The notes: generated by a model from the letters alone, not told the origin. DNA of 64,000 nucleotides from Desulfosudaceae bacterium (GCA_963674745.2 CAXXDV010000003.1:2240001-2304000), one strand, 5' to 3'. Shown: positions 581-19,764, counted from the first letter of the stretch. Numbers and translations: made by a program.

Positions 581-2800
581 ATGAAACATCTGTTGGTGGG
601 AATATTTCTCAAGCGTCAAATCTTTTCGGCAGCCGTCGTTCTGACGGTTCTGGCCCTGCTGACTTACGCCAACATCTTTAAATCACCGTTCATATTTGAC
701 GACGACCGCAACATCACCGAAAATCCGCTTATCCGGATGACCGAAATTACGCCGGAAGCCCTGACCCGGGTTTTAACCCGGGTTTTAAAATGCCCGTCAC
801 CCTTTCGCCCGCTGGCCAACCTCAGCTTTGCGGCCAACTATTTTCTCCACGGTTATGACGTCTGGGGCTATCATGCGGTCAATCTGATAATCCACATGAT
901 TACGGCGCTTATGGTCTTTCTGGTAACCAGACAGACCCTGGCGCTTTGCCAGGCAGATGAAAGGCTTGTCCCTTTTTTCGCCGCGGCCCTTTGGCTGGTC
1001 AACCCCCTGCATACCCAGTCGGTCACATATATTGTTCAGCGAATGAATTCCATGGCCGCCATGTTTTTCATGCTGGCACTGTTCTGCTTCATCCGGGGAC
1101 GAATAAATGCTGAGACCGGACAGCCCCGCTACCGCTCAGTCATGATGTACATTTTCTGCCTGATGGCCACTGTATCCGGGCTGGCCTCAAAGCAGATTGT
1201 GGCTGTCCTGCCGCTTATCCTGCTGCTTTATGAATGGTTTTTCTTTCAAAATCTGGATCGTGCCTGGCTGAGAAAACAGCTTCCCTGGATGGGTATTTTA
1301 ATTCTGGCCTTTGTTGTTCTGATCATTATTTACCTTGGCCACAATCCGCTTGAAACACTCGGCGAGATGTACGAAAAAAAGCCGTTCACCATGAAGCAGC
1401 GCCTGCTGACCGAAGCCGGTATTGTGATCTACTATATTTCACTGCTGGTCTTTCCCTATCCCGGCAGGCTGATCATGGATTACGACTTTCCCCTGGCACA
1501 CTCGCTGATGGATCCGATGGCGACCATCCCGGCCATCGTCGCCTTAATAATGCTGCTTATCGCAGCCGCAAACACGGCTCGGAGAAACCGCCTGATCTCT
1601 TTTGCCATATGCTGGTTCCTGATTACGCTCTTGATTGAATCTACAGTCATCGGAGTGGCCCTGATTTTCGAGCACCGCACTTATCTGCCCTCGGTCTTTC
1701 CGATAATCGGGCTGACGTTTCTGATATCCCGCCTGATCCGGCCCAGGGGACTGGCCCTGGCGTCACTCAGCCTCACTATTGTCGTCTGCGGCCTGTGGAC
1801 ATACCAGCGCAATACCACCTGGCAGAACGCCCTTGACATGTGGCGGGACAATATCGCCAAAAGCCCGTCTAAGGCCAGGCCATATGACGCGCTTGGATCC
1901 GAATATACGGATCTTGATGAATTTGACACGGCAATGACGTATTTTAAGCGATCTCTTGCTCGATCAACCCCACAGGAATATCAACACGCGGTTGCGTTGT
2001 GTAAAATCGGGGAATTATTAGTGCTGATGGATCAGCCTCGAGAAGCAGCGGCTTATTTAAAAAATGCCGTCATGGCGTTCCCTGAATACTGCCAGGCCCT
2101 CATTAATTATGGCGCAGCCTTGATTCTCCTGGGACAAACGGATGAAGCCATCATGTACAACCAACGAGCCCTGGCAATCAACCCTTATCTGGAAAAGGCA
2201 TACAATAACCTTGGTAACGCCTGGTTCAAAAAAGGAGAAGTACCCCTGGCCGTCAGTGCTTTACGCCAGGCAATGGCCCTCAACCCGACCTATTCAAAAG
2301 CCAGTAACAATCTTGCGACAATTCTGAGCATCAACAAACGATACGGCGGCATGATCGACCTGCTGAAACAAGCCGTCCGGCAAGACCCCCAAGATCCGCA
2401 TTTAGCCTATCAGCTGGCGCGGACCAGCCAGGCCTCCGGCATGACGGATCAGGCTATTCTCTGGTATAAACAGGCGCTATCTCTTGATCCGGATCAACCG
2501 ACATATTTGAACGCCTTGGGAGAAAGCTATGTTTCCGCCGGCAGGCTCGCGGACGCGGCAAAGGCACTGGAACGACTGGCCCGACAGCTACCGGATAATC
2601 CCACCGTGTTTTACAACCTGGCCTGCCTCTATGCCCGCCAGGAGGACCGGTATAATGCTGTTGAAAACCTGAAACGTGCCGTTGAGAACGGTTATGACAA
2701 CCGGGAGCATTTGCGGAACGATAAAGACCTGGAAAAAATTCATGATACGGATTATTATAAAAATTTTATCCAAAAATCTTTACCGACACCGCAGAAATAA
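581..2800 (+). CDS. TMTC-like GT-C glycosyltransferase (protein O-mannosyltransferase-like) with C-terminal TPR repeats, copy 1
   Basis: FIFDD..I..N, RPLANLSFAANY, GYHAVN, NPLHTQSVTYIVQR and EHRTYLP motifs; multi-TM N-half; TPR C-half ending YNLACLYA...GY...DKDL. Confidence 0.85.
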   Translation: MKHLLVGIFLKRQIFSAAVVLTVLALLTYANIFKSPFIFDDDRNITENPLIRMTEITPEALTRVLTRVLKCPSPFRPLANLSFAANYFLHGYDVWGYHAVNLIIHMITALMVFLVTRQTLALCQADERLVPFFAAALWLVNPLHTQSVTYIVQRMNSMAAMFFMLALFCFIRGRINAETGQPRYRSVMMYIFCLMATVSGLASKQIVAVLPLILLLYEWFFFQNLDRAWLRKQLPWMGILILAFVVLIIIYLGHNPLETLGEMYEKKPFTMKQRLLTEAGIVIYYISLLVFPYPGRLIMDYDFPLAHSLMDPMATIPAIVALIMLLIAAANTARRNRLISFAICWFLITLLIESTVIGVALIFEHRTYLPSVFPIIGLTFLISRLIRPRGLALASLSLTIVVCGLWTYQRNTTWQNALDMWRDNIAKSPSKARPYDALGSEYTDLDEFDTAMTYFKRSLARSTPQEYQHAVALCKIGELLVLMDQPREAAAYLKNAVMAFPEYCQALINYGAALILLGQTDEAIMYNQRALAINPYLEKAYNNLGNAWFKKGEVPLAVSALRQAMALNPTYSKASNNLATILSINKRYGGMIDLLKQAVRQDPQDPHLAYQLARTSQASGMTDQAILWYKQALSLDPDQPTYLNALGESYVSAGRLADAAKALERLARQLPDNPTVFYNLACLYARQEDRYNAVENLKRAVENGYDNREHLRNDKDLEKIHDTDYYKNFIQKSLPTPQK

Positions 2801-2937
2801 AATCATATCAAAAACAGATATGACGATTTGGTAAAATTCCTGGCCCGGATTGAGGCCCAGAAAGAGATGATGGAGAATGACGACAAAAAATCTTCTACGG
2901 GTATACGACATGACGACAGGGAGAAGCTAATCGATCC

Positions 2938-5133
2938 ATGAATCTTCCTTTATTTGGCAGCCACTCCCGGTGGCGGGTTCTCTTGATGCTTGTTTTTTTG
3001 ACGGCTGTATCGATTCCGGCTTACGTCAACATCCTTGACGCACCGTTTGTTTTTGACGACCTGCCCAACATCGTCAATAGCCCCCATATTCGATTGACAG
3101 AACTTACTTTAGACGGAATCATTAATGGCACCAAGGGGCAGTCTCCATTTCGACCGGTTGCTTATCTCTCTTTCTCATTAAACTATTATTTTTCCCGTTA
3201 TAACGTCACCGGTTTTCATCTGACCAATATTACCATTCATATCGCCGTCGCCTTTATGGTGTTTCTGATCGCCGGCCACACCCTGAGACTGGCTGGTATA
3301 ACCAGAGGTGTTATTCCGGAACTTTCAGCCATAGCCTGGCTGGTACACCCGCTCCATATCCAGTCCGTTACTTATACAGTACAACGCGTCAACAGCCTGG
3401 CCACCCTGTTCTTCCTGCTCAGTCTTTATCTGTATATCCTGGCCAGGCTGGCGCAGCGAACAGGCAAAAACAATCGCCTCAGAGCTGGTATGCTGTTTTC
3501 TGGATGCCTGGTTTCCGGGTTGCTGGCGCTGTTTTCAAAAGAAATTGCGGCGACACTGCCGGTATGCATCCTTCTTTACGAAATATTCTTTTTCCAGGGC
3601 CTGAGTCTTTCACGGCTTAAAAGGCCGGCCGAATGGCTGATCCTGATCTTCGTGATCTTAATACCCATCGCTATTCTCTATATTAAAGCGTCCCCCGTGG
3701 ACAGGGTTCTGGATTCCTATACCAATAAAGATTTTACCCTCGGCCAGCGCTTGCTAACCGAACCCAGGGTGATTGTCTATTATCTATCGCTCCTTTTTTT
3801 CCCGCACCCGGCCCGGTTAAATGTGGATTATGATTTTCCGATATCCAATTCACCGCTAGACCCGATCATGAGCCTGCTGGCGATAACGGCCATTATCGCC
3901 CTGCTGATAAAAGCCTTTTACCGGCCGAAACATCAACAGTTGTTGTCATTTGCCATTCTCTGGTTTCTGGGCAACCTGATCATCGAGTCTTCTTTTATCG
4001 GGCTGGCGATAATATTCGAACATCGGACCTATCTCCCCTCCACCTTCCTGATATTTGCTCTGGTAACAATTCTCATAAAAAAATTATCCCCTTCGATTGC
4101 CGCCGTTATTATCAGTTTGGCCATCATCACAGGAATGATCTGGACGCATCAGCGCAACGCCGTCTGGGAAGATACGCTCTCCCTGTGGCGGAACTGCGCC
4201 GAGAAAACACCCGGGAAAGCCGGCCCGGCCAACGGGGTGGGGTTGGGTTATCAACTGCACCAGCAACCGGAAAAGGCCCTTAAATGGTTTCTTAAAGCCG
4301 TGCAATTGAATCCGGGCTACCATGAGGCATACAGCAATGTCGGGGGAATCCTTATCAATCTGGGTCGTGCCGCCGAAGCCGTGCCCTATCTGGAAAAGGC
4401 CATCGCCTTGAACCCGGCAAACCATGCGGCCTTCAGCAACCTGGGGTCGGCCATGCAACGGATGAACCAACTCGAAAAAGCCGCCGGATATTATCGAAAA
4501 TCTATCAGCATCTATCCGGATTACGAAACCGCGCACAACAATCTCGGGGCCGTTCTGGTGGACATGGGGGATGTCGATCTAGCCCGGCACCACCTTAATC
4601 AGGCCATTCGCATCAACCCCGGATATCCAGACCCTTTTAACAACCTGGGACGGGCCATGATGCGGCTGGGGCGGACCGCGGATGCCATCAGCTATTATCA
4701 AAAAGCAATCGCCTTGAACCCGGAATACGCCATGGCCCATTTCAACTTGGGCACGGCCTGTTTCGAGGAACAGGACCTGGACTGCGCTCGTCGACACCTG
4801 GAACAGGCGGCCCGGTTTGCGCCGAACCCCGTGCTGGCCTTGAATAATCTGACGGCCGTACTGGTCATGCAGAAAGAATACGGGAAGGCGGCCGAAACCC
4901 TGGTCGAATTAATCGGGCTGCTCCCTGAAAGCGCCACCGTGCGTTACAACCTGGCCTGCGTTTACGCCATGGACGACAAAAAAGGGGACGCGATAAAATA
5001 TCTCAAACAAGCCGTCAATCTGGGTTATGACCACTGGGAGAACATGAGAAAAGATCCGGATCTGAAAAAAATTCGTGATACGGACTATTATCAAAACCTG
5101 GTACATGAGAATACCAGGAAGACTGAACAATGA
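2938..5133 (+). CDS. TMTC-like GT-C/TPR protein, copy 2
   Basis: FVFDD, RPVAYLSFSLNY, HPLHIQSVTYTVQR, EHRTYLP motifs; TPR array. Confidence 0.85.
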   Translation: MNLPLFGSHSRWRVLLMLVFLTAVSIPAYVNILDAPFVFDDLPNIVNSPHIRLTELTLDGIINGTKGQSPFRPVAYLSFSLNYYFSRYNVTGFHLTNITIHIAVAFMVFLIAGHTLRLAGITRGVIPELSAIAWLVHPLHIQSVTYTVQRVNSLATLFFLLSLYLYILARLAQRTGKNNRLRAGMLFSGCLVSGLLALFSKEIAATLPVCILLYEIFFFQGLSLSRLKRPAEWLILIFVILIPIAILYIKASPVDRVLDSYTNKDFTLGQRLLTEPRVIVYYLSLLFFPHPARLNVDYDFPISNSPLDPIMSLLAITAIIALLIKAFYRPKHQQLLSFAILWFLGNLIIESSFIGLAIIFEHRTYLPSTFLIFALVTILIKKLSPSIAAVIISLAIITGMIWTHQRNAVWEDTLSLWRNCAEKTPGKAGPANGVGLGYQLHQQPEKALKWFLKAVQLNPGYHEAYSNVGGILINLGRAAEAVPYLEKAIALNPANHAAFSNLGSAMQRMNQLEKAAGYYRKSISIYPDYETAHNNLGAVLVDMGDVDLARHHLNQAIRINPGYPDPFNNLGRAMMRLGRTADAISYYQKAIALNPEYAMAHFNLGTACFEEQDLDCARRHLEQAARFAPNPVLALNNLTAVLVMQKEYGKAAETLVELIGLLPESATVRYNLACVYAMDDKKGDAIKYLKQAVNLGYDHWENMRKDPDLKKIRDTDYYQNLVHENTRKTEQ

Positions 5134-5139
5134 CATTTC

Positions 5140-7593
5140 TTGCGGCAGCATCATATGCTGATATCAAACAAAAAACACGAATACACGATGCCCGGCAATA
5201 ACCCAAGTTTAACAATTCGTTCTTCAAGCGACTTCCCGGCATTCCACTTCCTTCTATCAGCCGCGGTAATGGCCCTGATCACCTTATTCGCTTATGCCGA
5301 TACCTTCAACGTCCCGTTTATTTACGATGATGTCAATAATATCACCTTAAACCGCCATATCCGGATGACAGCCGTCACTTTTGACAGCATTGCAGCCGTA
5401 TCCGAAAGCCCCAGTCCGCGCCCCTTCGCCAACCTGACGTTGGCCTTGAATTACTATTTCGGCCGTTATGACGTCCGGGGCTACCATGCCGTCAATCTGA
5501 CCATTCATATTCTGACGGGCCTTCTGCTGTTTCTGGTCGCCCGGTCCACCCTGCGGCTCTGCGGAACGGAGGACGTGATAGCACCGCTTCTGGCCGCGGC
5601 CCTGTGGCTGGTCAACCCGGTTCACACCCAGTCGGTGACCTACACCGTTCAGCGCATGAGCTCTCTGGCCACCCTGTTCTACCTTTTGGCCCTGTCATGT
5701 TATATCCGGGCGCGAATAACGGCTTTATCCGGACAAGGCCGCATTCCGCAAGTGCTTCTTTACGCGCTCTGCCTGGCCTCCGGTATACTCGGGCTGCTTT
5801 CCAAGCAGACAACGGCCACCCTGCCGGTGATGCTGTTTTTATATGAATGGTATTTCTTTCAGGACCGGAATCCGGGCTGGCTGAAAAAACAGGTACCCTG
5901 GATCGGTCTGACCGCCCTCCTGGTTCTTGTCGTGGCTGCCCCCTACCTGGGTACCAGCCCGCTGGATAAAATGCTGACAATCTATGAAAAGCAGCCGTTC
6001 ACCCCGGCCCAGCGGCTGCTGACCGAGCCGGCCGTGGTGATCTATTATATCAGCCTGCTGTTGTTTCCCCATCCGGACCGGCTGACCCTGCTTTACGATT
6101 TTCCGATTTTTTCATCGATGACCACCCCGATGACGGCCCTGGCAGGTATCATGGGTGTTTCCGTCCTGGTCCTGGCCGGTCTGATGCTGTCAGGGAAACA
6201 CCGCCTGCTGTCTTTCGCCGTTTTCTGGTTTCTGGGTAACCTGGTCATCGAATCCTCGGTCTTAGGCCTGGCAATTGTTTTTGAGCACCGGACCTACCTG
6301 CCGTCGGTTTTTCCCTTGATCGCCCTGACCGCGCTGGGGGTATCGGCATTCCGAAAACGGTGGCCGGCCGTAGTGATTGCCGGTTTCCTGATCCTCATCT
6401 GCGGCTTCTGGACACACCAGCGCAACACGGTCTGGAATGATACTGTCGGCTTCTGGCAGGACAATGTCGCCAAGGCCCCTGATATGCCGGAAGTCAACAA
6501 CAACCTGGGACAGGCCCTGCTGAAAAAAGGAGAAACCGAACAGGCGGCCGATTACTTCAAAATTGCCATGAAAAAAGATCCCGACCTGGAATCAGCCCGA
6601 GTCAACCTGGGGGTAACCCTGCAGCGAATGGGACAATCAGAATTAGCGGCCTCCCTCTACCGGACAATACTGACAACCAATCCCGCCAATACCAAGGCCC
6701 GGTTCAACCTGGCGATGCTTTTCAAAGAGGGCGGCCATACAGAAGCCGCTGTCAGGCAGTTAAAAAAAATAATCGCCGTCGACCCCCATGACACCAGCAC
6801 CATGCTCAATCTCGGCACGATCCTGCTGGAACAGCAGCACAACGCTCAAGCACTCATGTGGTTCAGAAAAGCCCTTACCCTGGATGCCGATGACCCCAAG
6901 CTCCTCAACAATCTGGGTGTTGTGCTGCACCGCCTGGACCGGACCGAAGAAGCCATAAGCGTACTGCGGCAGGGACTGACGCTGGCCCCGCACAACCCCA
7001 TGCTTCATAATAGCTTGGGATTGGCGCTGCTGGATTGTGGTCGATACGAAAAGGCCATGGAACATTTTCAACTGGCCCTGGCCGCCGATCCCGAAATGGC
7101 TGACGCCGTCAACAACCTCGGACTGGCGGCCGAAAAACAGGGAAAAACTGATCAGGCCATTGATTATTACCGGCAGGCCATGGGACTATCCCCGGCATAC
7201 GATCTGGCCCGCTACAATCTCGCGAATCTTCTCCTGAAAACGGGTCAGCCCGACAGCGCCATTTCCCTGCTGAACGACATCACCACCGTAAGTCCGGAAC
7301 ATCAGCCGGCCCTGCATCGGCTCATCGTTGCCCTGGTTGACGCACGGGCAATAGGCCCGGCAACCAGGCTGGCCGAAAAAACAGCGGCGGCATTACCCGA
7401 AGAGGCTGTTGCGCACTACAACCTGGCCTGCCTTTACGCGAGGCAGAACGATACAGACAAGGCTGTTAATGCCCTGCGAACAGCGATCGACAGAGGATAT
7501 GACCGCTGGGATTATCTGTGCGACGATAAAGACCTTGAGAATATTCACTATACGGAATATTATAAACTATTGACGCGGCAATGTGATCAATGA
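5140..7593 (+). CDS. TMTC-like GT-C/TPR protein, copy 3 (longest TPR array; true start may be ATG 5155 or 5188)
   Basis: FIYDD, RPFANLTLALNY, EHRTYLP motifs; TPR array. Confidence 0.85.
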   Translation: MRQHHMLISNKKHEYTMPGNNPSLTIRSSSDFPAFHFLLSAAVMALITLFAYADTFNVPFIYDDVNNITLNRHIRMTAVTFDSIAAVSESPSPRPFANLTLALNYYFGRYDVRGYHAVNLTIHILTGLLLFLVARSTLRLCGTEDVIAPLLAAALWLVNPVHTQSVTYTVQRMSSLATLFYLLALSCYIRARITALSGQGRIPQVLLYALCLASGILGLLSKQTTATLPVMLFLYEWYFFQDRNPGWLKKQVPWIGLTALLVLVVAAPYLGTSPLDKMLTIYEKQPFTPAQRLLTEPAVVIYYISLLLFPHPDRLTLLYDFPIFSSMTTPMTALAGIMGVSVLVLAGLMLSGKHRLLSFAVFWFLGNLVIESSVLGLAIVFEHRTYLPSVFPLIALTALGVSAFRKRWPAVVIAGFLILICGFWTHQRNTVWNDTVGFWQDNVAKAPDMPEVNNNLGQALLKKGETEQAADYFKIAMKKDPDLESARVNLGVTLQRMGQSELAASLYRTILTTNPANTKARFNLAMLFKEGGHTEAAVRQLKKIIAVDPHDTSTMLNLGTILLEQQHNAQALMWFRKALTLDADDPKLLNNLGVVLHRLDRTEEAISVLRQGLTLAPHNPMLHNSLGLALLDCGRYEKAMEHFQLALAADPEMADAVNNLGLAAEKQGKTDQAIDYYRQAMGLSPAYDLARYNLANLLLKTGQPDSAISLLNDITTVSPEHQPALHRLIVALVDARAIGPATRLAEKTAAALPEEAVAHYNLACLYARQNDTDKAVNALRTAIDRGYDRWDYLCDDKDLENIHYTEYYKLLTRQCDQ
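5355..6599 (+). repeat. ~1.25 kb near-identical direct repeat, copy A (GT-C domain of TMTC-like gene 3)
   Basis: Matches 7848-9092 at offset 2493 with only scattered substitutions. Confidence 0.95.
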
Positions 7594-7680
7594 AGCTTAA
7601 GCAGTCACTGAAATATACCAATCCTGTCCCGGATGCCCGATCAATGGCAATGACGGGCGGAGGGGCTCCCGACGTCCGGA

Positions 7681-9675: not shown

Positions 9676-9826
9676 TGACGACAAAGATCAGACATGACGT
9701 TTTTTGGCAAAAAAAAGACAAAAAAGGGCAAACGCCGGTTCTGCGTTGTTGCACCGGAAAAATAAAAAACATGCAACTATTTTATAATATTATAATTTAA
9801 GCCAAAGACGGCCTTTAAAATAAAGC

Positions 9827-9842
9827 TGGCATTTTATTTGCT
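9827..9842 (+). promoter_or_regulatory. Sigma-54 (-24/-12) promoter upstream of the filament subunit genes
   Basis: TGGCAT-TTTAT-TTGCT; GG at 9828-29 and GC at 9840-41 give canonical spacing; AT-rich upstream region. Confidence 0.7.
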
Positions 9843-10125
9843 TTTTTATTTTTGATACGCTTTTGCTTCATCAGCTTATTTGTTGGCGGGGAAAAAAAAT
9901 ATTGACAGGTTTATTTTGTCAGTGTTATGAGTTGATGACGTAAACACTGTTTACGTCTGTGAAAGGGGGTGATAAGGGCAAACTGGTTCTATCCAGACTC
10001 TGTTTTTTAGAGTCGACTATCGTCGGACTACCGTGCAAAACCCAAGCACATCCTTGGTCGGCGAAAAAGTTAAAAGTACTCAATTTAGTAAACCAAACGC
10101 TCAATCAACTTGTGGAGGAAACAGA

Positions 10126-10696: not shown

Positions 10697-11299
10697 ATGT
10701 CTGCTTCAACGGGCATAAATCAAAAAAAAGAGTGGTTAAGACGGATTACCTTTGCCGGCCTTATCCTGATGTTCGGCTTTGCCGTTGTTTCACCGCTACC
10801 CTGCTCGGCAATGGAAGCCCTGACCCAACAGGAACTGGGTGATTTATCCGGAAGGAGCGGTATCAGTATGGGATTCGCCAGCCCTGCGACCGTCAGGGCG
10901 ACGTTTACCTCGCTGAGCTTCGGGGACTCAGATGGCTGGGGCGATGGCACAGGCGGAACTAATAATGCCGGCTGGCTGGTACTCACCGGCAACGGTGCCG
11001 AGTTAAACATTGAGATTCCTGCTAACGCGCAACTTGACATTGATGTCGGCCACACCGTAAGCACCTGCGCCCCCAAGAGTGGCGCAGCTTACGCCGGGTT
11101 AAAAATTCCGGCCGACTCCACTTTTTTTACTTTCAGCCTGACCGAAACCAATATTGTCCTGGTGGTTCCGGATACTGTCTATATTGGTCTCAGCCAATCG
11201 GGCAGTTCAGTAGGTGATTATATGGGTTATATGCGGGCGGACAATGTCGCCATCGATAAAGCGAACAAGAAAAGCTCCTGCTATATTTGGACGCATTAA
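10697..11299 (+). CDS. Secreted FilA/DUF6160-like subunit, divergent paralog
   Basis: Signal peptide, MEALTQQELGDLSGRSG, FGDSDG, C-terminal CYIWTH; ATG 10697 preferred to the overlapping start in the track. Confidence 0.65.
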   Translation: MSASTGINQKKEWLRRITFAGLILMFGFAVVSPLPCSAMEALTQQELGDLSGRSGISMGFASPATVRATFTSLSFGDSDGWGDGTGGTNNAGWLVLTGNGAELNIEIPANAQLDIDVGHTVSTCAPKSGAAYAGLKIPADSTFFTFSLTETNIVLVVPDTVYIGLSQSGSSVGDYMGYMRADNVAIDKANKKSSCYIWTH

Positions 11300-11359: not shown

Positions 11360-11896
11360 ATGAAAAAACTCGGATTAATTTGTTTAATCGTTAGTTTACT
11401 GGCCCTTCCGATGTCGGCCATGGCCCTGGAAAAAATGTCCGGAGAAGATCTGGGCGGCGTTACCGGTCAGGCCGGTGTTACCATCGGCTTTGGCGGTACC
11501 ACCACCACCACCATCGATTTCAGCGAGCTGAGCTGGGGAGATCCGGACGGCCTTGGTGCCGGTTGTGGCGCTAATCAGGGCTGGCTGATCATTGACGGTG
11601 ATATCAGCATACAGCAGATAATTGCCGACGGCCAGACGCTGACACTGGATGTCGGTACCACCAACGCGGACAGCTGTAGCCCGGGCACAGACGCCGTTGT
11701 GATTCCCACTTCCGGAACCACCTTTATCGCGGTGGGGCTGCCGTCTACCACAATGAACATCAGTGTTGCCAATCAGCTGACCATCGGGATGGGCACCGCA
11801 GCCGGCACCATTGCCGGTACTGTCGGGCTGCTGAATCTGCAGAGCCTGACCGTTGATGCGGGTACCCCGAGTACCCTTTACATCTGGGCTCACTAA
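11360..11896 (+). CDS. Secreted FilA/DUF6160-like subunit, copy 3 (mature part nearly identical to copy 1)
   Basis: AAGGAG RBS; signal peptide; LEKMSGEDLGGVTGQAG; LYIWAH end. Confidence 0.7.
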   Translation: MKKLGLICLIVSLLALPMSAMALEKMSGEDLGGVTGQAGVTIGFGGTTTTTIDFSELSWGDPDGLGAGCGANQGWLIIDGDISIQQIIADGQTLTLDVGTTNADSCSPGTDAVVIPTSGTTFIAVGLPSTTMNISVANQLTIGMGTAAGTIAGTVGLLNLQSLTVDAGTPSTLYIWAH

Positions 11897-11938
11897 GATC
11901 CCTGTGTCCGTTTGATGTATTATAACGGATAACAATAT

Positions 11939-11991: not shown

Positions 11992-12009
11992 TTATAATAA
12001 TGCGCTATT

Positions 12010-13119
12010 ATGCAACCATTTAGAACCTTTACCCTCAATCCCAGCCTTATCAGGCAGACGTTCACCTGCTTTCTTTTTCTTTTGATTACCGTTTCTGCTT
12101 ACGCCGGCACAACTGAATTGTTGTCCGACGCCTGCATAGCAGACATTACAGCCGGTGCCGGTGATACGGTAATAACGGCTTTTTATGAGACCCCGACCAC
12201 AGCCTACATTGATAATACGCCCCGCTGGTGGGGGGATATGGATGGTGCTGCCGGTGCCGGATGCGGTAACGCACCCGGATTTATCGTCACCAACCTTCCC
12301 TACAATGATTTCCAGCATGATAATTTTAAGTATTCATTTAACAGTCAGGCTGAATTGGATGCGTTCATAAATGATCTGGCTACGTTGCCGGGCAGCCCAA
12401 TTAATGTGCTTGCCACTGACTATATCAAAAGCAACCCCGGTACCGACCATATTTTTTCCAATGACGGCAGGCCCCCCCGTGTCCAGGAAATCATCATTAC
12501 CACTGACCAGAAAATAAACGGAGATTTTGTCCGTACCCATAACGGCCAGGTCATTACCCAGAACGTGCGTTTTGACCTTGAATTCCTGCCGCCTTACGCG
12601 AGATCTTACACTACTGAAACAACGGAGCAAACAGCTGAGGGCAGGGACGGGAAAACCGGTCGCCTGCTCCCCTCCAGATCTTTCAGACAGTACAATCAAT
12701 ATGAATGGGTGCAACGAAATAATTCCGGCGTTGAAATCATACGGAATGCGGACGGAACATTCTACTTTACCCAGCGTCAGCCACACACGTTTAATTTCGG
12801 TGCGATTTATCTGGAATGTACGACTACGGGCGATCAGCCCATACTTTCATCTTCTGGTTATGTTGTCGTACCGCCAAACACCACTTTTCTGAGAAACACC
12901 ATTTATAATGATTTGAATGTTTACAGCCCTGCTTTGGGCATGACGATCGGCCTTGCCCCTGCCGGAGAAACCGATCCGGAAACCGGGGAAATTTCTCCCG
13001 ACCTTGATCACTATCAGGAACTGGGAATACTTGATATAAGAAATTTGAATATTTCGCTAAAAGGCGGCAACGATATTTATGTTTATGCCAATGAGGATCT
13101 GGATGTGCGCTGCCCCTAA
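12010..13119 (+). CDS. Large FilA-like paralog with inserted domain (candidate minor or tip subunit)
   Basis: Signal peptide; LLSDACIADITAGAG; WWGDMDGAAGAGCG; VVVPPNTTF; LGILDIRNL...IYVYAN align to the small subunits around a central insert. Confidence 0.55.
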   Translation: MQPFRTFTLNPSLIRQTFTCFLFLLITVSAYAGTTELLSDACIADITAGAGDTVITAFYETPTTAYIDNTPRWWGDMDGAAGAGCGNAPGFIVTNLPYNDFQHDNFKYSFNSQAELDAFINDLATLPGSPINVLATDYIKSNPGTDHIFSNDGRPPRVQEIIITTDQKINGDFVRTHNGQVITQNVRFDLEFLPPYARSYTTETTEQTAEGRDGKTGRLLPSRSFRQYNQYEWVQRNNSGVEIIRNADGTFYFTQRQPHTFNFGAIYLECTTTGDQPILSSSGYVVVPPNTTFLRNTIYNDLNVYSPALGMTIGLAPAGETDPETGEISPDLDHYQELGILDIRNLNISLKGGNDIYVYANEDLDVRCP

Positions 13120-13353: not shown

Positions 13354-14136
13354 ATGCACGTACTTATTGCTTTCTTAATCAGTACTGCCTTGCTTTCCGG
13401 TTTTCTCCCCTCAAGGGAGATACCTGACAATGAGGTGCGTTTTATTTATGCCCCTATTGACGGTATAACAACCAACACGGATTACTATCTTCCCCACGCT
13501 CTCCAGCCGGTCGAACTGCATTTTGAGATGAGAAACGCGTCGGATATAGAAAAATCACGCATTATTTCTCAGAAATATGACTATAGTTGCGGATCTGCTG
13601 CCCTGGCCACACTCTTAAGATACCACCTTGCTGAAGATTTTGAGGAAACGCACATTATTCACGGCCTGCTGAAATACGGGGACAAGGAAAAAATTATAGA
13701 GAGAAGGGCGTTCTCCCTTCTGGATATGAAAAAATTTGTTAATGCCATCGGATACCAGGGCGTGGGCTACAAGGCTGAAATAGAGGACCTTGAAACGCTG
13801 AACATGCCCTGCATTCTACCCATGGAACTTTACGGTTATCGCCATTTTACCGTGTTCAAAGACGTTTATAAAGGCCATGTTTTTCTGGCTGACCCGTTTC
13901 AGGGAAACACCAGCTACCCGATAGAACAATTTAAAAAGTTGTGGCATGAAAATGTTATTTTTGTCGTTTATCCTTCAGGAGAAGAGCAATTGGCCTTATT
14001 AAAATTGAAAAACGACGATCTCCGTTTTATGGATGAAGATCGGACACTGGATATCATGTTTCGAGACAGAATGTTAGAGAAAGAACCAATGCCGATTGAG
14101 ACAGATCCTAAAACACGACAATACTATAAAAGATAA
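13354..14136 (+). CDS. C39 family cysteine peptidase (FilB/FapD-like), stand-alone, with N-terminal signal
   Basis: SQKYDYSCGSAALATLL (Gln, Cys), RHFTV (His), LADP (Asp); FSLLDMK motif. Confidence 0.9.
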   Translation: MHVLIAFLISTALLSGFLPSREIPDNEVRFIYAPIDGITTNTDYYLPHALQPVELHFEMRNASDIEKSRIISQKYDYSCGSAALATLLRYHLAEDFEETHIIHGLLKYGDKEKIIERRAFSLLDMKKFVNAIGYQGVGYKAEIEDLETLNMPCILPMELYGYRHFTVFKDVYKGHVFLADPFQGNTSYPIEQFKKLWHENVIFVVYPSGEEQLALLKLKNDDLRFMDEDRTLDIMFRDRMLEKEPMPIETDPKTRQYYKR

Positions 14137-14160
14137 ACCGCAATGCGCCTCAGGAGGTAC

Positions 14161-16092
14161 ATGTTGAAGGCAAATATAAAAATTATTTTCATGGCGGCGT
14201 TATTACTGACAGCCCTGGTAATAAATGGAAACGGTCAGGAAAACCAGACAGGTACCAAGGCCAGCGACCAGGCTGAAACCGGTTTTTCAAAAAGCCTCAC
14301 CTCGAGAGAGTTGGAGCGGCAAACCGCTGCCGGCCTGAAAAAGGACCTGGCCCCTGAAGCACTTGAGGCAGCCACTGGTGCCGGCCTGAAAAAAAATCTG
14401 GACAGTGATGAACTGCAGGAGTCCACGGCCGCCGGCCTGAAAAAAGACCTGACCACTGAAGAGTTAAATTCATCCATTGGAGCGGGCATCAGGCGTGTCT
14501 CATCGCTGGAACTGGATAAAGCATCCGGCCGGGGATTTATGACCGACATGACCCGGGCGGAGCTGGAAAATCTTGTCGGTAAGGGCTTTATCGGCAAGCT
14601 TACACCTGATGAAATTGAACAAATCAGCGCCCGGGGAACATTATCTGATGAACAGGCGCGAATGACCATCAAAGACCTTGCTTCTGTTTTCGCTCAGGGC
14701 GTTAAATTCATCATTGACACATCAAAATTTTCAGAAGAGGAGCTGGGCGAAATTAAAGGCCGGGGCACCCTTCAGGATATCGGTAAATTCCCCTACTCGA
14801 TCCAGGTGGGGGTTTTCAGGGACAAAGCCAATGCCATTGCCATGCTGGAAACCATTAAAGGACAAGGCTATGATCCTTATATTTTCAGAACCCGTGATGA
14901 CCTCGGCAATTCGCTGTTTGCCGTTCGCCTCGGCGATTATGAATCCATTCAGGAAGCTTATGCCGAAGTGACACATTACAAGGGCAAAGAACACAAGGAA
15001 GCTTTTGTCACCTACATCAACTCTACCAAAAGTGTGGATGAAAAAGACATCGTTAATGAAAAAGATGAAAGCGCACGTCCGGATCTTTCTAATCAGCTTG
15101 ATTTTGACAAAGAATACGCCAGCGAGGATCTGAGGGCTCTTTACAAACAGATTCAAGCACTTGAAGGTGAAGTTGATAAATTACGGACTGAGTCGCAAGC
15201 CAGGAAAAAACTCAAGATGACAGAAGCCGAGCAGCAAAAGGAGGAAGAAGAAATCCTCTCCGCTGCCGGGCGTGAGTATGTGCTGTCGCCGGCCGGAACT
15301 TTAAGCTTTGATTATAATTTCGGATACACCCATAACAGTTATGACGAGGCTGAATGGAACGTTTCCCGCATCAAGCATACAGCTGATCATACACTGACGA
15401 ACACCCTGTCAACCACTTACGCTCTGTTCGACAACCTTTCTTTGTCCGCGTCCATTCCGTTCAAATATAAGTATCACGATCTGGGTGTCAGCGGGTCAAA
15501 AGATGTCAGCGATTTAGGCGACCTTTCTTTAAGCTTCAGCTGGCAGCCTACCAAATCCCAACAGTCGATACCGCCTATCATTGTTACTACCAGTGTTTCC
15601 GCGCCTACCGGTCGGGGACCGTATGAAATCAACCCGGAAGTTGATTTATCAACCGGTTCCGGTATTTATTCGTTTTCACTTGGTGTCAACACCAACAAAA
15701 AAGTCGATCCGGTAGTGGTTTACGGGGGGCTTGCTTATTCCTTTCTGTTAAAGGAAAAAGACTTGGACTACTATCTGGGAACAGGCGCTGTTCTTAATGA
15801 AGTAGAACCGGGCGGGGGGGTTGCCTTGAGCCTGGGGCTTGGTTATGCCATGTCCTATGCGGCAACTATCAACGTAGGCATCAGTATGACTTATTCCTTC
15901 GGGTCAACGTATTATTATCTGGACGGCAGTAAGTCGGAAACCGGTGATGCGGTCAGCGCCAGCCTCAGCCTGGGTACCGGCTGGCGTTTTTCAAGCCAGC
16001 GGACAATCAGTTTTTCCGTTGGCATCGGCCTGACCAATGATGCTTCGGACTTCTCATTTTCCTTTAGAATACCCTTTGATTACGCACTGTAA
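14161..16092 (+). CDS. Outer-membrane transporter (FilC/FapF-like beta-barrel) fused to N-terminal 17-aa repeats, a SPOR domain and a coiled coil
   Basis: AGGAGG RBS; signal peptide; YSIQVGVFRDKANA SPOR motif; LRALYKQIQALEGEVDKL coiled coil; LGDLSL...APTG barrel motifs; C-terminal FSFRIPF. Confidence 0.7.
   Translation: MLKANIKIIFMAALLLTALVINGNGQENQTGTKASDQAETGFSKSLTSRELERQTAAGLKKDLAPEALEAATGAGLKKNLDSDELQESTAAGLKKDLTTEELNSSIGAGIRRVSSLELDKASGRGFMTDMTRAELENLVGKGFIGKLTPDEIEQISARGTLSDEQARMTIKDLASVFAQGVKFIIDTSKFSEEELGEIKGRGTLQDIGKFPYSIQVGVFRDKANAIAMLETIKGQGYDPYIFRTRDDLGNSLFAVRLGDYESIQEAYAEVTHYKGKEHKEAFVTYINSTKSVDEKDIVNEKDESARPDLSNQLDFDKEYASEDLRALYKQIQALEGEVDKLRTESQARKKLKMTEAEQQKEEEEILSAAGREYVLSPAGTLSFDYNFGYTHNSYDEAEWNVSRIKHTADHTLTNTLSTTYALFDNLSLSASIPFKYKYHDLGVSGSKDVSDLGDLSLSFSWQPTKSQQSIPPIIVTTSVSAPTGRGPYEINPEVDLSTGSGIYSFSLGVNTNKKVDPVVVYGGLAYSFLLKEKDLDYYLGTGAVLNEVEPGGGVALSLGLGYAMSYAATINVGISMTYSFGSTYYYLDGSKSETGDAVSASLSLGTGWRFSSQRTISFSVGIGLTNDASDFSFSFRIPFDYAL
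14284..14766 (+). repeat. About 9 tandem 16-22 aa repeats, consensus L-T/S-x-x-E-L-x4-G/A-x-G
   Basis: GCCGGCCTGAAAAA at 14329, 14380 and 14431 (51-bp period); translated repeats visible. Confidence 0.85.
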
Positions 16093-16110
16093 AACGTGAC
16101 AGGAGAATTG

Positions 16111-17928
16111 ATGCGATCACGACCACAGGCCAGACCGGGATGGTTATTTTTAATTGCCTGTTTTATATTCAGCCTCGGCGGCAGTATCAACTGCCAGGCA
16201 GCCCTTTTTGAAAACATGGCCATCTGTGCCAAGGCCATCTCGCTGGCAAACTCCTGTACCGCCTATCCTCCGGATCAAATGTCCATTCACTATAATCCGG
16301 CCGGGCTATCCACTGTTCATGACGGTCTCCAATTGAGCCAGGGGCTTCTCACCGCCTCGTTTGCATTAAAATCAAGGTTTGATCCGGATCCGGACTTTCC
16401 CGGATGGCTGGGCGGAATTTACAGCGGGGAGCCGGGTGATTCTGATTATTACGACTACCGCCCCGAAGCCGATCCGGTTGCCGGCCAAAGCGGTACCAGT
16501 TCAGGTGTTCATCTTTACCTTCCCCTGATGGGCTCCCAGGACATGAGTTCTGTCGGTATGCCGACGCCGTTTGGTTTTTCTCTGGCCGCAGCCCCTTTCC
16601 CTTTTGGCCTGTCTTACCGGAAACCGAATTCACGCGTAACCTTCGGATTCGGTTTATATGCCCCTGCCATGGGCGGGTTTTACCGTGATGACGATGACCC
16701 CGCCCGGTACAACGGACGGGCGCTTTCCATGCAGCACATTGTTTACGCCGCACCAGCCGTCAGCTATCAACTGACGGATACCCTTTCCGTAGGGGTTACC
16801 CTGGGGCTTGGTCAGGGTGCCACCGAGATTGACACGGACATGCGATTGCCCAACGACATGACCGCATTGACGGAAATTCTCGGTATATCAACGCAAGGAT
16901 TGAACATCCCCGTTATTTCTCAATTGACCCTCCCCCCGCCATGGATGGGCGGCGGTGTCGGCCCTTATGACGATATCGGCAACATGTCTCTTGCTGTCCG
17001 TGATGACTATACACCGAGCTACAATCTTGGTCTTCTTTGGGAACCGTCCAACTGGTTTTCATTCGGTCTCTGTTATCAAAGTGAAGTCAAAATGGAATAT
17101 AGCGGCAGCTTCAAATTCACCTACAGCGAGGAATTTCAAGGTTTTGTCGCCTGGATGGGCAGTTCGCCACTACTCCTGGCCGTTTCCCAGCTGCTGGATC
17201 TTCCCTACCGATCCACACCTTACCAGCAAGGGGCAGTCAACTTGACAGGTGGAGACTTCCCGGAGAGAATCCAGACCGGTATCATGCTTCGCCCCATCCG
17301 CCGTCTTAGGCTGATGTGTGATCTGCACTGGATAAACTATTCCAAGACCAAGGCCTATACCATAATCTTTGACCAGGACATCCAGGCTTTAATGATATCC
17401 AAATTCATCGGGCACCTGGATGGGAATAACAGATTAAAGATTGACATGAACATGAAGGATGAAGTCCATCTCAGCTTCGGCCTTGAATACCAACTGCTGG
17501 ACTGGCTGTCCTTAAGATGCGGTTATGAAGACAGAAAAACATCTGTAAACATGGACTATTTCTCGTTGCTGGCACCGCTGGCCGATATAGACTACTATGG
17601 TGTCGGCCTGGGCATTCAATTAAAAAGCGGCCTGAAAATCGATCTGGCCGCCGGGTTTCTCAAGTCCGACTCATGGGAGGTGCCCAACAATTCCAGTAAG
17701 AATCTGAACTCTACGGAATTTATCGATGCAGTGTACAACCCCTATGGGGGTATGGATGTTTCGGGCAGCATGGAAGCCACCCTCATTGCCGCCAATTTTT
17801 CCCTGCCGTTCGAATATCTTTACCGGGTCGGCGACTTGTTAAAAGATACCGGGCAAAAAATCAAAGAGAATATGCCTTTTATGAAAAAATCGAAAAAGCC
17901 TGAAACACAGGACCCGATCAATAAGTAA
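16111..17928 (+). CDS. FadL/OmpP1/TodX-family outer-membrane protein (FilD-like)
   Basis: Signal peptide; KAISLANSCTAYPP..SIHYNPAGL FadL-type N-terminal motif; alternating beta-strand pattern. Confidence 0.8.
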   Translation: MRSRPQARPGWLFLIACFIFSLGGSINCQAALFENMAICAKAISLANSCTAYPPDQMSIHYNPAGLSTVHDGLQLSQGLLTASFALKSRFDPDPDFPGWLGGIYSGEPGDSDYYDYRPEADPVAGQSGTSSGVHLYLPLMGSQDMSSVGMPTPFGFSLAAAPFPFGLSYRKPNSRVTFGFGLYAPAMGGFYRDDDDPARYNGRALSMQHIVYAAPAVSYQLTDTLSVGVTLGLGQGATEIDTDMRLPNDMTALTEILGISTQGLNIPVISQLTLPPPWMGGGVGPYDDIGNMSLAVRDDYTPSYNLGLLWEPSNWFSFGLCYQSEVKMEYSGSFKFTYSEEFQGFVAWMGSSPLLLAVSQLLDLPYRSTPYQQGAVNLTGGDFPERIQTGIMLRPIRRLRLMCDLHWINYSKTKAYTIIFDQDIQALMISKFIGHLDGNNRLKIDMNMKDEVHLSFGLEYQLLDWLSLRCGYEDRKTSVNMDYFSLLAPLADIDYYGVGLGIQLKSGLKIDLAAGFLKSDSWEVPNNSSKNLNSTEFIDAVYNPYGGMDVSGSMEATLIAANFSLPFEYLYRVGDLLKDTGQKIKENMPFMKKSKKPETQDPINK

Positions 17929-18093
17929 CACTTTTTTTAGAAGGACAAAATAAGCTCAATATCAGCTTTTTAATTCAAAAGGCCAAAACTCCTGATAGAA
18001 TTCACATTGCAGTGTAGTGTCAGGATGCGTTCTTGCGATGTGCTGATATTGAATTTTTTTTTGCGGTCTTTAATCACATGGGAAAGAGGAAAA

Positions 18094-19764
18094 ATGAGAT
18101 TACTGCTGTTTTCTTTACTGCTTGTCACATCACCGGGCATTTTATTCGCAAACCAGGCAAAAACCACGATAGAAGAAAGGATGGTTCCTCTAGGTCATGG
18201 CATCAGCGGAGAAGAGATATATGTCAACTCACTTGAAATAAGCCCCGATTTTAAACATATCGGCTATGTTTCCAGAATTGGTGGGACATTCCGGGTGTGG
18301 CTGGACGGAGTGTCCAAGAAAAGCCACAGTGGTGTTACCAGGCAGTCTCCGTTCTTCTCTCCCGAACAGAACCGGCTGGCATATATTGCCAATGAAGGGG
18401 ACAACATGTTTGTTGTCATTGATAACCACGAACATGACCGATATAAACAAGTCGGAACCCTGACGTTCAGCCCTGACGGTTCTCGAGTCGCGTATCGGGC
18501 CGAAGATGCCAAGGGAAGTCAGTTTGTCGTTATTAACGGTAAAGAGGGGCCGAAATTCGATGTGGGAATTACTAATGATATCGGCATTGTCTTCAGCCCT
18601 GATTCAAAGCATGTGGCTTATGTCGGTATCAACGACAAGGACTCCGTTATATTTGTTAAAGACAACAAAAAAATAGACAGTTTTAAACAAATCAAGCAGG
18701 TCAAATTTTCCCCTGACTCAAATCACCTTGCCTATTCTGCCATGAAAGACGATGGATGGGTCGTTGTCCTGGATAATAAATCTGGCCAAACGTATATAAT
18801 GGTCGACAACCTGATGTTTTCTCCTGACAGCACTCAGCTGGTTTATATGGCTCAAAAAAGCCGCCGCTCGATTATCGTAATAAACAACAAAGAAATCAGT
18901 GAGGGAATCGGTGTGCTTTTCCCCTCCTTTTCGCCCCATAAGGGACGGTTTGCGTACATCATTGCTGAAAAGAATAATAAATTTTGCTATGTCCTGGATG
19001 GGGAAAAAGAACTTTTAGTGGATAAACCCGGCCGGATGATTTTCAGCCATGATGATACCAGCGCGGCCTATGCCGCTTTGATAAAGGACAAGTGGCATGT
19101 TTTAAAAGACGGTGTTAAGGGCCCGGCTTTTAAAAAGATCTACGCTTTTTCCTATTCCCCTGCCAGCAATGATATTCTGTACGCCGCTGAAAATGAAGCG
19201 GGTCAAAAATGTGTTGTAGTCAACCACATTCCGGAAAAATTTTATAACTCAATTGGCGCACCCGTATACAGCAAAAATGGTCAAAAATATGCATACGTGG
19301 CCACGAACAACGACGGGAAGATGTTCATAATCATCAATGGACAGGAGCAAAAAACGACATATCCCATAATCGGGATTCCCGTGGAAGAAGTCAATGAGTC
19401 GGGGGTCAGCGCCCAGCATCCGTATTTCAGTGACACCGGCAAACGGCTGGCTTTTCCGGTTTACGATCCTGACCAAAAGAAAGCCTTCATGGTGGTTGAC
19501 GGAAAAAACCAGCAAACCTTTGACGCGGTTATGGCGCCCTGCTTTTCTCCCGATGAAAAACACATCGCCTATATGGGCAAAAAAGGAAACAGCTGGCACA
19601 TGGTCGTGAATGGGAAACCCGGCCGCCATACCTGCGACGGAATGATTCGCGGTGCAACCATCGCATTTGATCCCGCTAATAACTGCTTTTTTATACTGGT
19701 TGCCAGCAACACTGAATCAGGCCTTTCTTTTTACCGCATGGAGGCTGAGATCAAAAGCCCTTAA
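18094..19764 (+). CDS. Secreted beta-propeller repeat protein (TolB/PD40-like)
   Basis: About 10 repeats of FSPD...AY.A......VV.DG; signal peptide after GAGG RBS. Confidence 0.75.
   Translation: MRLLLFSLLLVTSPGILFANQAKTTIEERMVPLGHGISGEEIYVNSLEISPDFKHIGYVSRIGGTFRVWLDGVSKKSHSGVTRQSPFFSPEQNRLAYIANEGDNMFVVIDNHEHDRYKQVGTLTFSPDGSRVAYRAEDAKGSQFVVINGKEGPKFDVGITNDIGIVFSPDSKHVAYVGINDKDSVIFVKDNKKIDSFKQIKQVKFSPDSNHLAYSAMKDDGWVVVLDNKSGQTYIMVDNLMFSPDSTQLVYMAQKSRRSIIVINNKEISEGIGVLFPSFSPHKGRFAYIIAEKNNKFCYVLDGEKELLVDKPGRMIFSHDDTSAAYAALIKDKWHVLKDGVKGPAFKKIYAFSYSPASNDILYAAENEAGQKCVVVNHIPEKFYNSIGAPVYSKNGQKYAYVATNNDGKMFIIINGQEQKTTYPIIGIPVEEVNESGVSAQHPYFSDTGKRLAFPVYDPDQKKAFMVVDGKNQQTFDAVMAPCFSPDEKHIAYMGKKGNSWHMVVNGKPGRHTCDGMIRGATIAFDPANNCFFILVASNTESGLSFYRMEAEIKSP

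Follow-up and report, generated by a model that had tools for sequence, protein, structure and literature searches.

A Fil-type pilus operon at the end of a candidate glycosylation island in a Desulfosudaceae bacterium

Results

A glycosyltransferase array precedes a Fil-type pilus operon

Within the window, the 64,000-nucleotide stretch of DNA analysed here, four membrane glycosyltransferases (GTs) stand before a Fil-type pilus operon, and we consider it about an even call that this operon ends a glycosylation island supplied by lipid-linked donors and that the adjacent enzymes count the FilA subunits among their likely acceptors. All 12 of the co-oriented open reading frames proposed by the first-pass annotation are present on the plus strand (581..19764), with four GT-C-fold/TPR enzymes in the left half and the Fil operon, comprising FilA/DUF6160 subunits, an intact C39 peptidase, FilC, FilD and a propeller, in the right half. 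The earlier recognition of a Fil-like cluster also stood, as Pfam and NCBIfam models matched FilA to FilD in order. Related bacteria show the same pairing, so the filament may carry a sugar coat. Our literature searches, judged by their listings, gave no description of a Fil-GT pairing.

The window truncates the locus, which continues for about 35 kb upstream (G000:C3:2204150-2240200). This part holds three further close GT paralogues and a fourth, more distant TMTC-like gene, DPY19-like and PMT-like GT-C enzymes, genes of the donor (lipid-sugar) pathway and two large FilA-like genes, bringing the full locus to seven close GTs and six FilA-like genes. Just upstream of the window lie the donor genes, namely GT2-DUF2304, PssD/PssE, amino-sugar and flippase-like genes. 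A DPPR-synthase-like UbiA, scoring below cut-off, lies 35 kb upstream, and an ALO domain (DprE1-type) was not found in the genome. The GT array and filA are separated by 450 AT-rich base pairs (9676..10125) that contain a perfect TTGACA (9902-9907). A separate fil promoter in this gap is possible; a consensus scan called none there, and a promoter/terminator scan returned nothing specific. Because of the gap, we treat co-transcription of the array and fil as putative. RNA contigs from close relatives (one study, four libraries) cover filA and filB-D, along with short stretches of the GT genes other than GT1, which is uncovered; the depth is unfit for ranking genes.

The four enzymes share a predicted GT-C fold and periplasmic TPR tails

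GT1 (581..2800, 739 aa) and its paralogue GT2 (2938..5133, 731 aa) are membrane glycosyltransferases with TPR matches in their periplasmic tails. GT3 (5140..7593, 817 aa from a TTG start, with an alternative ATG at 5188) has the longest TPR tail and GT4 (7681..9675, 664 aa) a shorter one. The membrane domain of GT4 is a recent duplicate of that of GT3 (98.7% DNA identity over 1257 bp, 7848-9104 versus 5355-6611), so the array holds about three distinct catalytic domains. With a strict threshold, hydropathy plots of the window enzymes showed 9-10 peaks. The N-terminal domains matched no Pfam model for TMTC or PMT even at E<=5, and PDB sequence searches with the membrane domains returned nothing. 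The AlphaFold2 model of the GT1 N-terminal domain resembled Pmt1/2 most closely (Z 19.6, rmsd 5.0, 332 residues aligned), then Pmt4 (Z 19.0), ArnT (18.9) and STT3 (18.8); all 20 entries with Z>=8 were GT-C-fold proteins, and the next entry scored 5.3. By modelled fold and motifs, then, the window enzymes belong to the GT-C superfamily, as the first-pass annotation had proposed. GT1 displays FIFDD, RP, KQ and EHRTY motifs, and the acidic pair after the first transmembrane segment (D40-D41) is invariant in 13 of 13 GT rows. Among ESM Atlas neighbours of GT4 are PMT_2 clusters (0.98) and a eukaryotic TMTC_DUF1736 cluster (0.92, rank 25). GT2 alone of the four has KE at TMTC motif M4; in GT1, GT3 and GT4, KQ replaces this metal-binding KE. 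The sugar donor is probably not plain mannose.

The subunits belong to a filament-forming family

FilA A1 (10126..10662, 178 aa; its start is most likely ATG 10126 rather than GTG 10033) and FilA A3 (11360..11896, 178 aa) exceed the DUF6160 cut-off of 27 bits, with 30.9 and 38.4 bits, respectively; A1 stays below the cut-off of NF050077. The FilA-like A2 (10697..11299, 200 aa, 29% identical to A3) fell below the DUF6160 cut-off (E 0.025) and matched NF050077 at E 6e-6. A4 (12010..13119, 369 aa), a large, divergent secreted protein, matched no Pfam or NCBIfam model and was missed by our FilA profile. It retains a WGDxDG motif and the FilA-type C-terminal strand pattern, has same-position orthologues in four genomes (G129, G067, L097 and L098), and looks weakly FilA-like; it is possibly a minor or tip subunit. 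A1 and A3 (87% amino acid identity; 97.3% DNA identity over 442 bp) are recent duplicates, which leaves about three distinct subunit types. The GGTTTTTIDF stretch ascribed to the subunits occurs in A1 and A3 and not in A2 or A4; TTTTT appears in 14 of 124 aligned FilA rows.

A1 has a signal peptide and a 15-residue leader ending in GQ, with a predicted mature start at Ala38. Leader scores are 35 bits for A1, 23.5 for A2 and 5.5 for A4. One leader-scoring reading frame elsewhere (G000:C3:1346329-1346913) was not counted as FilA, having a helical-looking body and no fil neighbours. Alignment of profiles with hhalign linked A3 to Massilia FilA (98%), which in turn matched PDB 9XFV, the cryo-EM filament 'pilus-like-alpha', at E 4.5e-29. 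This strong two-step link through one intermediate homologue places FilA, on sequence similarity, in a filament-forming family. The 9XFV chain begins at the predicted leader cut, in line with N-terminal processing of the subunits; both properties had been anticipated. Searches with FilA profiles did not find 9XFV directly, and we dismissed their hit on the Ig-domain entry 9ncf because it covered a short repeat. The A3 model is all-beta (pLDDT 86.9), with the Thr run opening a long strand. Structural agreement of the FilA model with 9XFV is weak (Foldseek probability 0.41; VIA Z 3.4, rmsd 6.0, 104 aligned), and fold searches with the model found nothing at Z>=5 or E<=0.001, which is not proof of a new fold. 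A four-copy complex prediction scored 0.38 against a mark of 0.42 and carries no weight either way.

FilC carries repeats of the FilA leader

FilB (13354..14136) is a stand-alone C39 peptidase with an N-terminal hydrophobic segment, above cut-off for Pfam C39 and under cut-off for NF050078 (1e-55) and FapD (6e-37). Its triad, Cys79-His164-Asp180, is intact and invariant in 13 of 13 rows. FilC (14143..16092, 649 aa) is a FapF-like outer-membrane barrel with a coiled coil (NF050079 7e-55, FapF 1e-18); ahead of the barrel stand leader-like repeats and a SPOR domain (residues 217-289). The repeats reproduce the FilA leader motif in eight tandem units of about 17 residues each (residues 69-207; 14347..14763): eight sites reach at least 6 bits, against a mean of 0.2 and a maximum of 2 in 1000 shuffles. 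Other FilC proteins contain seven such sites (G129, G111) or four (G067, L097, L098), and the remaining ones scanned 0-2. FilD (16096..17928, 610 aa) is a FadL/OmpP1-type outer-membrane barrel (Toluene_X 6e-39; NF050080 7e-94, below cut-off). The last gene (18007..19764) encodes a secreted beta-propeller with TmcD/TolB-like repeats (PD40/WD40; NF045725 5e-36, below cut-off), present at 11 of 25 deltaproteobacterial fil loci versus 0 of 55 other fil loci.

GT-C/TPR genes recur beside fil

In 12 of the order's 24 Fil-positive genomes, representing 6 of the 11 families that could be assessed, a GT-C/TPR gene lies no more than about 4 kb from filA, well above the 6.1% of this genome that lies within 10 kb of a non-island GT, a random background that may understate chance proximity because GTs cluster with other envelope genes. 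Binomial values (1.7e-5 at p=0.06; 0.012 at p=0.2) are overstated because kin are not independent. Linkage well above background in this lineage is supported, and the first-pass interpretation as a whole partly so. Seven of the 24 show no GT in the flanks read, and several 'unlinked' genomes (G043, G052, G012) have a short flank on one side; five (G038, G055, G057, G122, G073) were unscored, their contigs being too short. FilA and FilD were found together in the same 23 of 151 genomes. A GT is linked at 8 of 25 deltaproteobacterial fil loci (gaps of 97-2989 bp); elsewhere in the phylum, 4 of 11 additional genomes show a link, and named isolates such as L121 (titled Desulfatibacillum alkenivorans) carry the pairing.

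Proximity of this kind could arise without a shared function. The GTs would then serve a general envelope island whose acceptors are type IV pilins, exported proteins or lipids/LPS, FilA would be unmodified, and the fil operon would merely share the variable surface-structure region. We hold this to be a credible account, if clearly on the short side of even. Consistent with it, the GT keeps company most constantly with the donor cassette and with type IV pilin rather than with fil: the same GT terminates the same cassette in the Fil-negative L280, L285 and L291, and its family lies beside pilin in 11 of 20 loci read and in this genome. Of 151 genomes, 71 carry the close GT clade, and 54 of these 71 are Fil-negative; a far-clade profile matches 59 of the 151, mostly Fil-negative ones. 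This genome holds 26 TMTC-like enzymes, and five close paralogues in it are without a fil neighbour. Bacterial TMTC-like enzymes are very common, and to our knowledge an acceptor is known for almost none. The idea of a GT lineage dedicated to Fil dissolved on wider sampling: an apparent far-clade lineage (12 rows, SH-aLRT 95) was a sampling artefact that disappeared once Fil-negative genomes had contributed another 25 rows (both trees are of the quick SH-aLRT kind, and the first, with the 12-row lineage, leaves out GT4 as a GT3 duplicate). Mature FilAs at GT-linked loci are not enriched in Ser+Thr (0.194, n=27, versus 0.183 in unlinked ones, n=29, p 0.31; gamma/beta 0.208, n=17, p 0.14), and Thr-richness, once read as a sign of glycosylation, has lost that value. 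Nor is any GT linked at the 55 non-deltaproteobacterial fil loci, which may reflect mere absence of the TMTC-like family there.

Against an incidental neighbourhood, GT genes are interleaved with filA in three genomes of one family (f20: G019, G101, G150; their second fil clusters have no GT in the flanks read), directly abut filA in families f1, f6 and f73, and flank fil on both sides in G345. Moreover, the pilin locus already has GTs of its own, which form a separate subclade (SH-aLRT 92) with 13 rows beside pilin and 0 beside fil. The first-pass annotation had named linkage to type IV pilins instead of fil as evidence against its proposal; what we found is linkage to both. GT2 is the sister of a fil-adjacent gene in G129 (SH-aLRT 100), and GT3 that of the GT immediately upstream of filA in the same genome (96). 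Fil-adjacent GTs come from two different clades, which suggests repeated recruitment.

Alternatively, glycosylation might be confined to the large accessory proteins, whether A4, the upstream FilA-like pair, the propeller or FilC, or most paralogues might extend a glycan stepwise rather than prime protein, so that the array mirrors glycan complexity and not subunit number. In keeping with such an account, the number of GTs per locus (2-10) does not follow that of filA genes, and the ratio varies widely; one enzyme per subunit is not supported, and the four-to-four match is a coincidence. A sulfotransferase, a B12 radical SAM enzyme and an acetyltransferase in the upstream island, the coexistence of KQ and KE variants, the DPY19-like GT on the strand of the two large FilA-like genes, and a report that TfpW polymerises besides transferring all point the same way. 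The long TPR tails kept by all four window GTs instead suggest protein binding, and we judge this alternative improbable. We find it very improbable that the four enzymes are true TMTC orthologues, each O-mannosylating one of the four subunits at the Thr run: the common architecture, the DD motif, the Atlas match and the strand position of the run speak for it, but the proteins show no DUF1736 match and lack the SHKSY mannose-contact residues and the RxD aspartate, TMTC membership and a mannose donor are not supported, seven close GTs face six FilA-like genes, GT3/GT4 and A1/A3 are recent duplicates, and the run is unconserved in distant FilAs.

Discussion

If FilA is indeed among the acceptors, we picture the following sequence. 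The subunits would cross the inner membrane by means of their Sec-type signal peptides. In the periplasm, the GT-C/TPR enzymes would take either one sugar or a short glycan off a polyprenyl-phosphate carrier made by the upstream genes and, in a TfpW-like manner suggested by fold and gene content, move it onto Ser/Thr of TPR-bound subunits. FilB, with its intact triad, would remove the 15-residue leader after G-[QR], a cut site that the start of 9XFV points to, perhaps while docked on the leader-mimic repeats of FilC. Export through FilC/FilD would follow, and the subunits would assemble into a helical filament rich in beta structure, as the homologue 9XFV does. Glycosylation would be an optional decoration by enzymes recruited from a general family, not specific to Fil. 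A broader proposal, that TfpW/TMTC-like GT-C/TPR enzymes were repeatedly recruited in Desulfobacterota-type bacteria to glycosylate Fil, a filament outside the type IV class, and that in this lineage the FilC repeats dock or titrate the C39 peptidase, coupling leader removal to export, strikes us as plausible, though a little less than even.

A small, highly conserved subunit encoded beside GTs offers a tractable test substrate for TMTC-like enzymes. Were FilA glycosylated, the TfpW principle would hold for a second class of filament, and TPR-guided O-glycosylation could be studied in a bacterial model; were the recruitment reading true, the large GT-C/TPR family would gain a second concrete class of substrate. 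Taken together, the leader motif, the start of the 9XFV chain and the FilC repeats make the target of a periplasmic C39 peptidase directly testable.

Several known systems invite comparison. Like animal TMTC1-4, the window GTs combine a GT-C membrane domain with a TPR tail, and they keep DD (M1), the RP of M2, the R of M3, the K of M4 and the E/R/Y of M7. They differ in having PFRP/SPRP and QRMN/QRVN/QRMS instead of SHKSYRP and RxD, KQ at M4 in three of the four, and DY/DF in place of DW, with no PF08409 match at E<=5 in the four N-terminal domains and no evident cadherin-like substrate. Set against KE(T/Q)xxT (M4) and ERxxY (M7), GT2 has KE, and all four carry EHRTY with a shift of one residue. 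Full-length, uncharacterised prokaryotic TMTC homologues exist, one of them deltaproteobacterial (PMC7801869). Closer in setting is TfpW of Pseudomonas aeruginosa group IV, described as an 11-TM GT-C enzyme with TPR, and with DDX in its first periplasmic loop, whose gene lies beside its pilin substrate (bioRxiv 10.1101/2020.04.19.049825). By that described architecture, the window GTs resemble it in DD, about 11 transmembrane segments, a periplasmic TPR tail and an adjoining filament subunit gene, and a clade sister to theirs stands next to type IV pilin; unlike TfpW, they adjoin a non-type-IV subunit, are many rather than one, and come from a genome without an ALO domain.

The Pseudomonas Fap system likewise pairs a periplasmic C39 peptidase with a coiled-coil barrel, and FapD activity is required for secretion, its target being described as unclear (PMC5557850). 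In contrast to Fap, the window subunits are modelled as folded all-beta, A1-A4 lack N/Q amyloid repeats, a second, FadL-type barrel is present, and the Fil models score far higher. The nearest relative is the Fil pilus of Acinetobacter (NF050077-NF050080; DUF6160), whose fimbriae in strain Tol 5 are deduced to be long curved fibres (PMC3498257). It has the same filA-filB-filC-filD order, and all four models are the best NCBIfam matches; none of the 12 genes gave a match of FilE or FilF type. Scores stay below the curated cut-offs (FilA 26-36 of 220, FilB 189 of 475, FilC 187 of 630 and FilD 315 of 970 bits); since these are narrow 'exception' models, the low values mark a distant branch, not a different system. 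What sets this branch apart from Acinetobacter Fil is its several subunit paralogues, the SPOR and leader-repeat extension of FilC, an added propeller and the GT array.

Gene content and extent of the locus

All twelve co-oriented genes reported by a first-pass annotation are found in the window sequence, on the plus strand: four GT-C/TPR genes (GT1-GT4, 581-9675), four FilA or FilA-like subunit genes (A1-A4, 10126-13119, with the A1 start most likely at 10126), the C39 peptidase gene filB (13354-14136), filC (14143-16092), filD (16096-17928) and a propeller gene (18007-19764). DNA identity between A1 and A3 is 97.3% across 442 bp, and between GT3 and GT4 it is 98.7% across 1257 bp, which points to recent duplication within both sets of four. 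A second propeller gene copy (32% identity) lies distant from the fil locus, at G000:C1:2322865-2324376 of the same genome (G000).

The window corresponds to G000:C3:2240001-2304000, and the labels of homologues indicate Desulfobacterota. Its edge cuts the locus, which continues through 35 kb upstream. In addition to three further close GT paralogues, this segment holds a distant TMTC-like gene and DPY19-like and PMT-like GT-Cs. It also encodes an epimerase, a DegT aminotransferase and a PglD-type acetyltransferase; a GT2-type gene that precedes DUF2304, and a DUF2304-like/GT2 fusion; a PssD/PssE pair and two LPG_synthase_TM genes of flippase-like type; a sulfotransferase and B12 radical SAM genes; and a DPPR-synthase-like UbiA. 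Two large FilA-like genes, both with a leader (411 and 569 aa), lie there as well, in a minus-strand run at G000:C3:2214334-2221282 (L001, L002) that includes a TMTC-like gene and a DPY19-like GT-C carrying a TPR; proteins homologous to the 411-aa one are encoded at filA array ends in several families. On the other side of the operon, window positions 19791-23926 encode minus-strand thi4 and thiC, with a TPP riboswitch (23833-23926), followed by a tRNA (23954-24027). An IS110 transposase gene (22522-23637) separates thi4/thiC from their riboswitch and may have uncoupled thiamine regulation. Beyond it, an AmmeMemoRadiSAM-type trio (24206-28932) comprises a Memo-AMMECR1 fusion, a spermidine-synthase-like membrane protein and a Tat radical SAM protein.

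A Fil operon with a filament-like subunit

The right half of the locus is a Fil operon, as had been proposed. A1 and A3 score above the DUF6160 cut-off, and the top NCBIfam matches are FilA, FilB (1e-55), FilC (7e-55) and FilD (7e-94), every one below its curated cut-off. Within the order, FilD occurs in 23 of 151 genomes and FilA in 24, all 23 FilD genomes included. RNA contigs from four marine-sediment libraries of one study, derived from relatives and not from the strain itself, include A1-A3 and, in some runs, A4, filB, filC, filD and short stretches of GT2-GT4; one 847-base contig, present in two runs, extends from the end of A1 through all of A2 into the start of A3. These contigs show presence in RNA libraries only.

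The predicted structure of A3 is all-beta (pLDDT 86.9), with the first 17 residues of the model devoid of regular structure. Its sole pilus-like match in a fold search, a weak one, is 9XFV, a helical filament solved by cryo-EM and described as coming from a cave water sample (PMC12956863). Sequence bridges the gap left by this weak match, since A3 aligns to Massilia FilA with 98% probability and Massilia FilA matches 9XFV at E 4.5e-29. The 9XFV chain starts immediately after the leader G-R, a position aligned to GQ|Ala38 of A3. From this start we infer, with good reason, that FilB removes the FilA leader at this putative cleavage site, although an uncut, disordered N-terminus would appear identical. 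The C39 triad of FilB is unchanged in all 13 aligned rows.

Leader-like sequences recur in FilC. Scored with a matrix from 124 FilA leaders, window FilC contains eight sites of at least 6 bits (the site threshold) between residues 69 and 207, spaced by about 17 residues; 1000 shuffled controls gave a mean of 0.2 sites and a maximum of 2. FilC has seven such sites each in G129 and G111 and four each in G067, L097 and L098, and the remaining scanned FilC proteins have 0-2. These repeats may dock or titrate FilB. Elsewhere in G000, an orphan secreted ORF without fil neighbours (G000:C3:1346329-1346913) carries a FilA-type leader (24.9 bits) ahead of a helical-looking body and is a possible additional FilB substrate.

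Fil loci of other genomes vary in several ways. G061 has about ten near-identical filA genes on separate contigs (L077-L085), apart from filBCD, which may form a mobile subunit cassette or one that varies antigenically. The C39 peptidase of family f6, at about 507 aa, is close to double the normal length and has a C-terminal extension (L048:11420-12949; L076:5412-6935), and f53 operons contain a tandem filC pair (L045, L063). In G111, a 2192-aa secreted repeat protein, a candidate adhesin, is encoded between the filA array and filB (L049:8319-14897).

GT-C/TPR enzymes recur beside filA

The membrane domain of the window GTs found no match in sequence-library searches. Compared by fold, its model resembles Pmt1-Pmt2 (Z 19.6, rmsd 5.0, 332 aligned) and also Pmt4, ArnT and STT3, well above unrelated rows. 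The proposed likeness to TMTC enzymes, the animal O-mannosyltransferases, holds in part: against a published motif list (PMC7801869), the DD is invariant and the RP of M2 and the R of M3 are kept, the rest of M2 and M3 is lost, and DW is absent. M4 has KQ in three of the four, and M7 reads EHRTY. GT1-GT4 are predicted to act in the manner of TMTC or TfpW, a Pseudomonas pilin glycosyltransferase, and are not classed as TMTC members.

We read the filA flanks in all 24 Fil-positive genomes, covering every main cluster and most scattered copies. In 12 of them a GT-C/TPR gene lies within about 4 kb of filA: G000, G129 and G067 (f1), G005, G091 and G144 (f6), G111, G134, G086, and G019, G101 and G150 (f20), where the GT sits within the filA array. 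Seven showed no linked GT in the DNA read, and the contigs of five were too short. Linkage thus occurs in 6 of 11 assessable families, against a background in which 6.1% of G000 lies within 10 kb of a non-island GT. The corresponding binomial values (1.7e-5 at p=0.06, 0.012 at p=0.2) are inflated, since related genomes do not count as independent cases. A second set of 80 FilB loci, from partly overlapping genomes and not summed with the first, had a GT at 8 of 25 deltaproteobacterial loci (5 of 11 full-length) and at none of 55 non-deltaproteobacterial loci (0 of 41 full-length). A phylum survey of 401 genomes gave 37 FilB matches; four of the 11 strong new ones read were linked, and four weaker ones read had no GT. 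The association is real, recurrent and testable. The enzymes are not Fil-specific, and FilA glycosylation is only putative.

Enzyme distribution and competing explanations

The close GT clade, one of two groups of these enzymes, was recovered from 71 of the 151 genomes, and 54 of these are Fil-negative. A type IV pilin, the alternative partner that the first-pass annotation had weighed, does lie near 11 of the 20 close-clade loci read away from fil, and the same holds in G000. The pilin-adjacent enzymes group in a subclade of their own (SH-aLRT 92; 13 pilin rows, of which 2 lie on short contigs, and 0 fil rows), separate from the window genes. The window GTs are therefore distinct from the pilin enzymes, although the group that holds them also contains five dispersed G000 copies. 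In G000:C3:2460370-2469126 (L007), a type IV pilin gene stands ahead of a close-clade GT-C/TPR, a VKOR-DsbA fusion, a far-clade GT-C/TPR, GT9 and a PMT_2 protein. A seemingly all-Fil GT clade dissolved once Fil-negative rows were included. In Fil-negative genomes similar GTs terminate the same GT2/flippase-like cassette, and filA was found at none of 20 further loci read. Four Fil-negative loci (L280, L285, L287, L291) share a DUF2304-like/GT2 fusion, usually accompanied by a second GT2, a sulfotransferase and a flippase-like gene, and a terminal GT-C/TPR, a gene content that suggests a sulfated lipid-linked glycan donor.

We consider it an even call that the locus makes a Fil filament and that some of the neighbouring GT-C/TPR enzymes decorate its subunits. 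Decoration of the putative FilA acceptors would occur in the periplasm, from a polyprenyl-linked, probably non-mannose donor supplied by the upstream cassette; FilB would then clip the decorated subunits, which would leave via FilC/FilD. Of this scheme, the genes, their linkage, the folds, the catalytic motifs and the homology to a filament are established, whereas the cleavage site, export route, acceptor and donor are predicted. Possible, at a lower level of confidence, is that fil and the GTs hitchhike in a surface island. That the enzymes serve accessory targets or glycan extension is unlikely. Strict TMTC-like one-to-one mannosylation is very improbable, as GT and filA counts disagree across genomes (ten close GTs on the fil contig vs about four subunit genes in G129; three close and three distant GTs vs two in G067). 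Nor did Thr/Ser richness serve as a sign of glycosylation: linked FilAs show no Ser/Thr enrichment, and only close relatives keep the Thr run.

Relation to known systems

The Fil-GT pairing is not described in the literature searched, which took in few subscription papers. Its components are of known kinds: the Fil operon, the GT-C/TPR enzymes, and a GT-C/TPR gene beside a filament subunit. The last arrangement is already known from TfpW, which adjoins its own filament subunit and, going by its preprint (bioRxiv 10.1101/2020.04.19.049825), is the closest characterised prokaryotic analogue of the window GTs.
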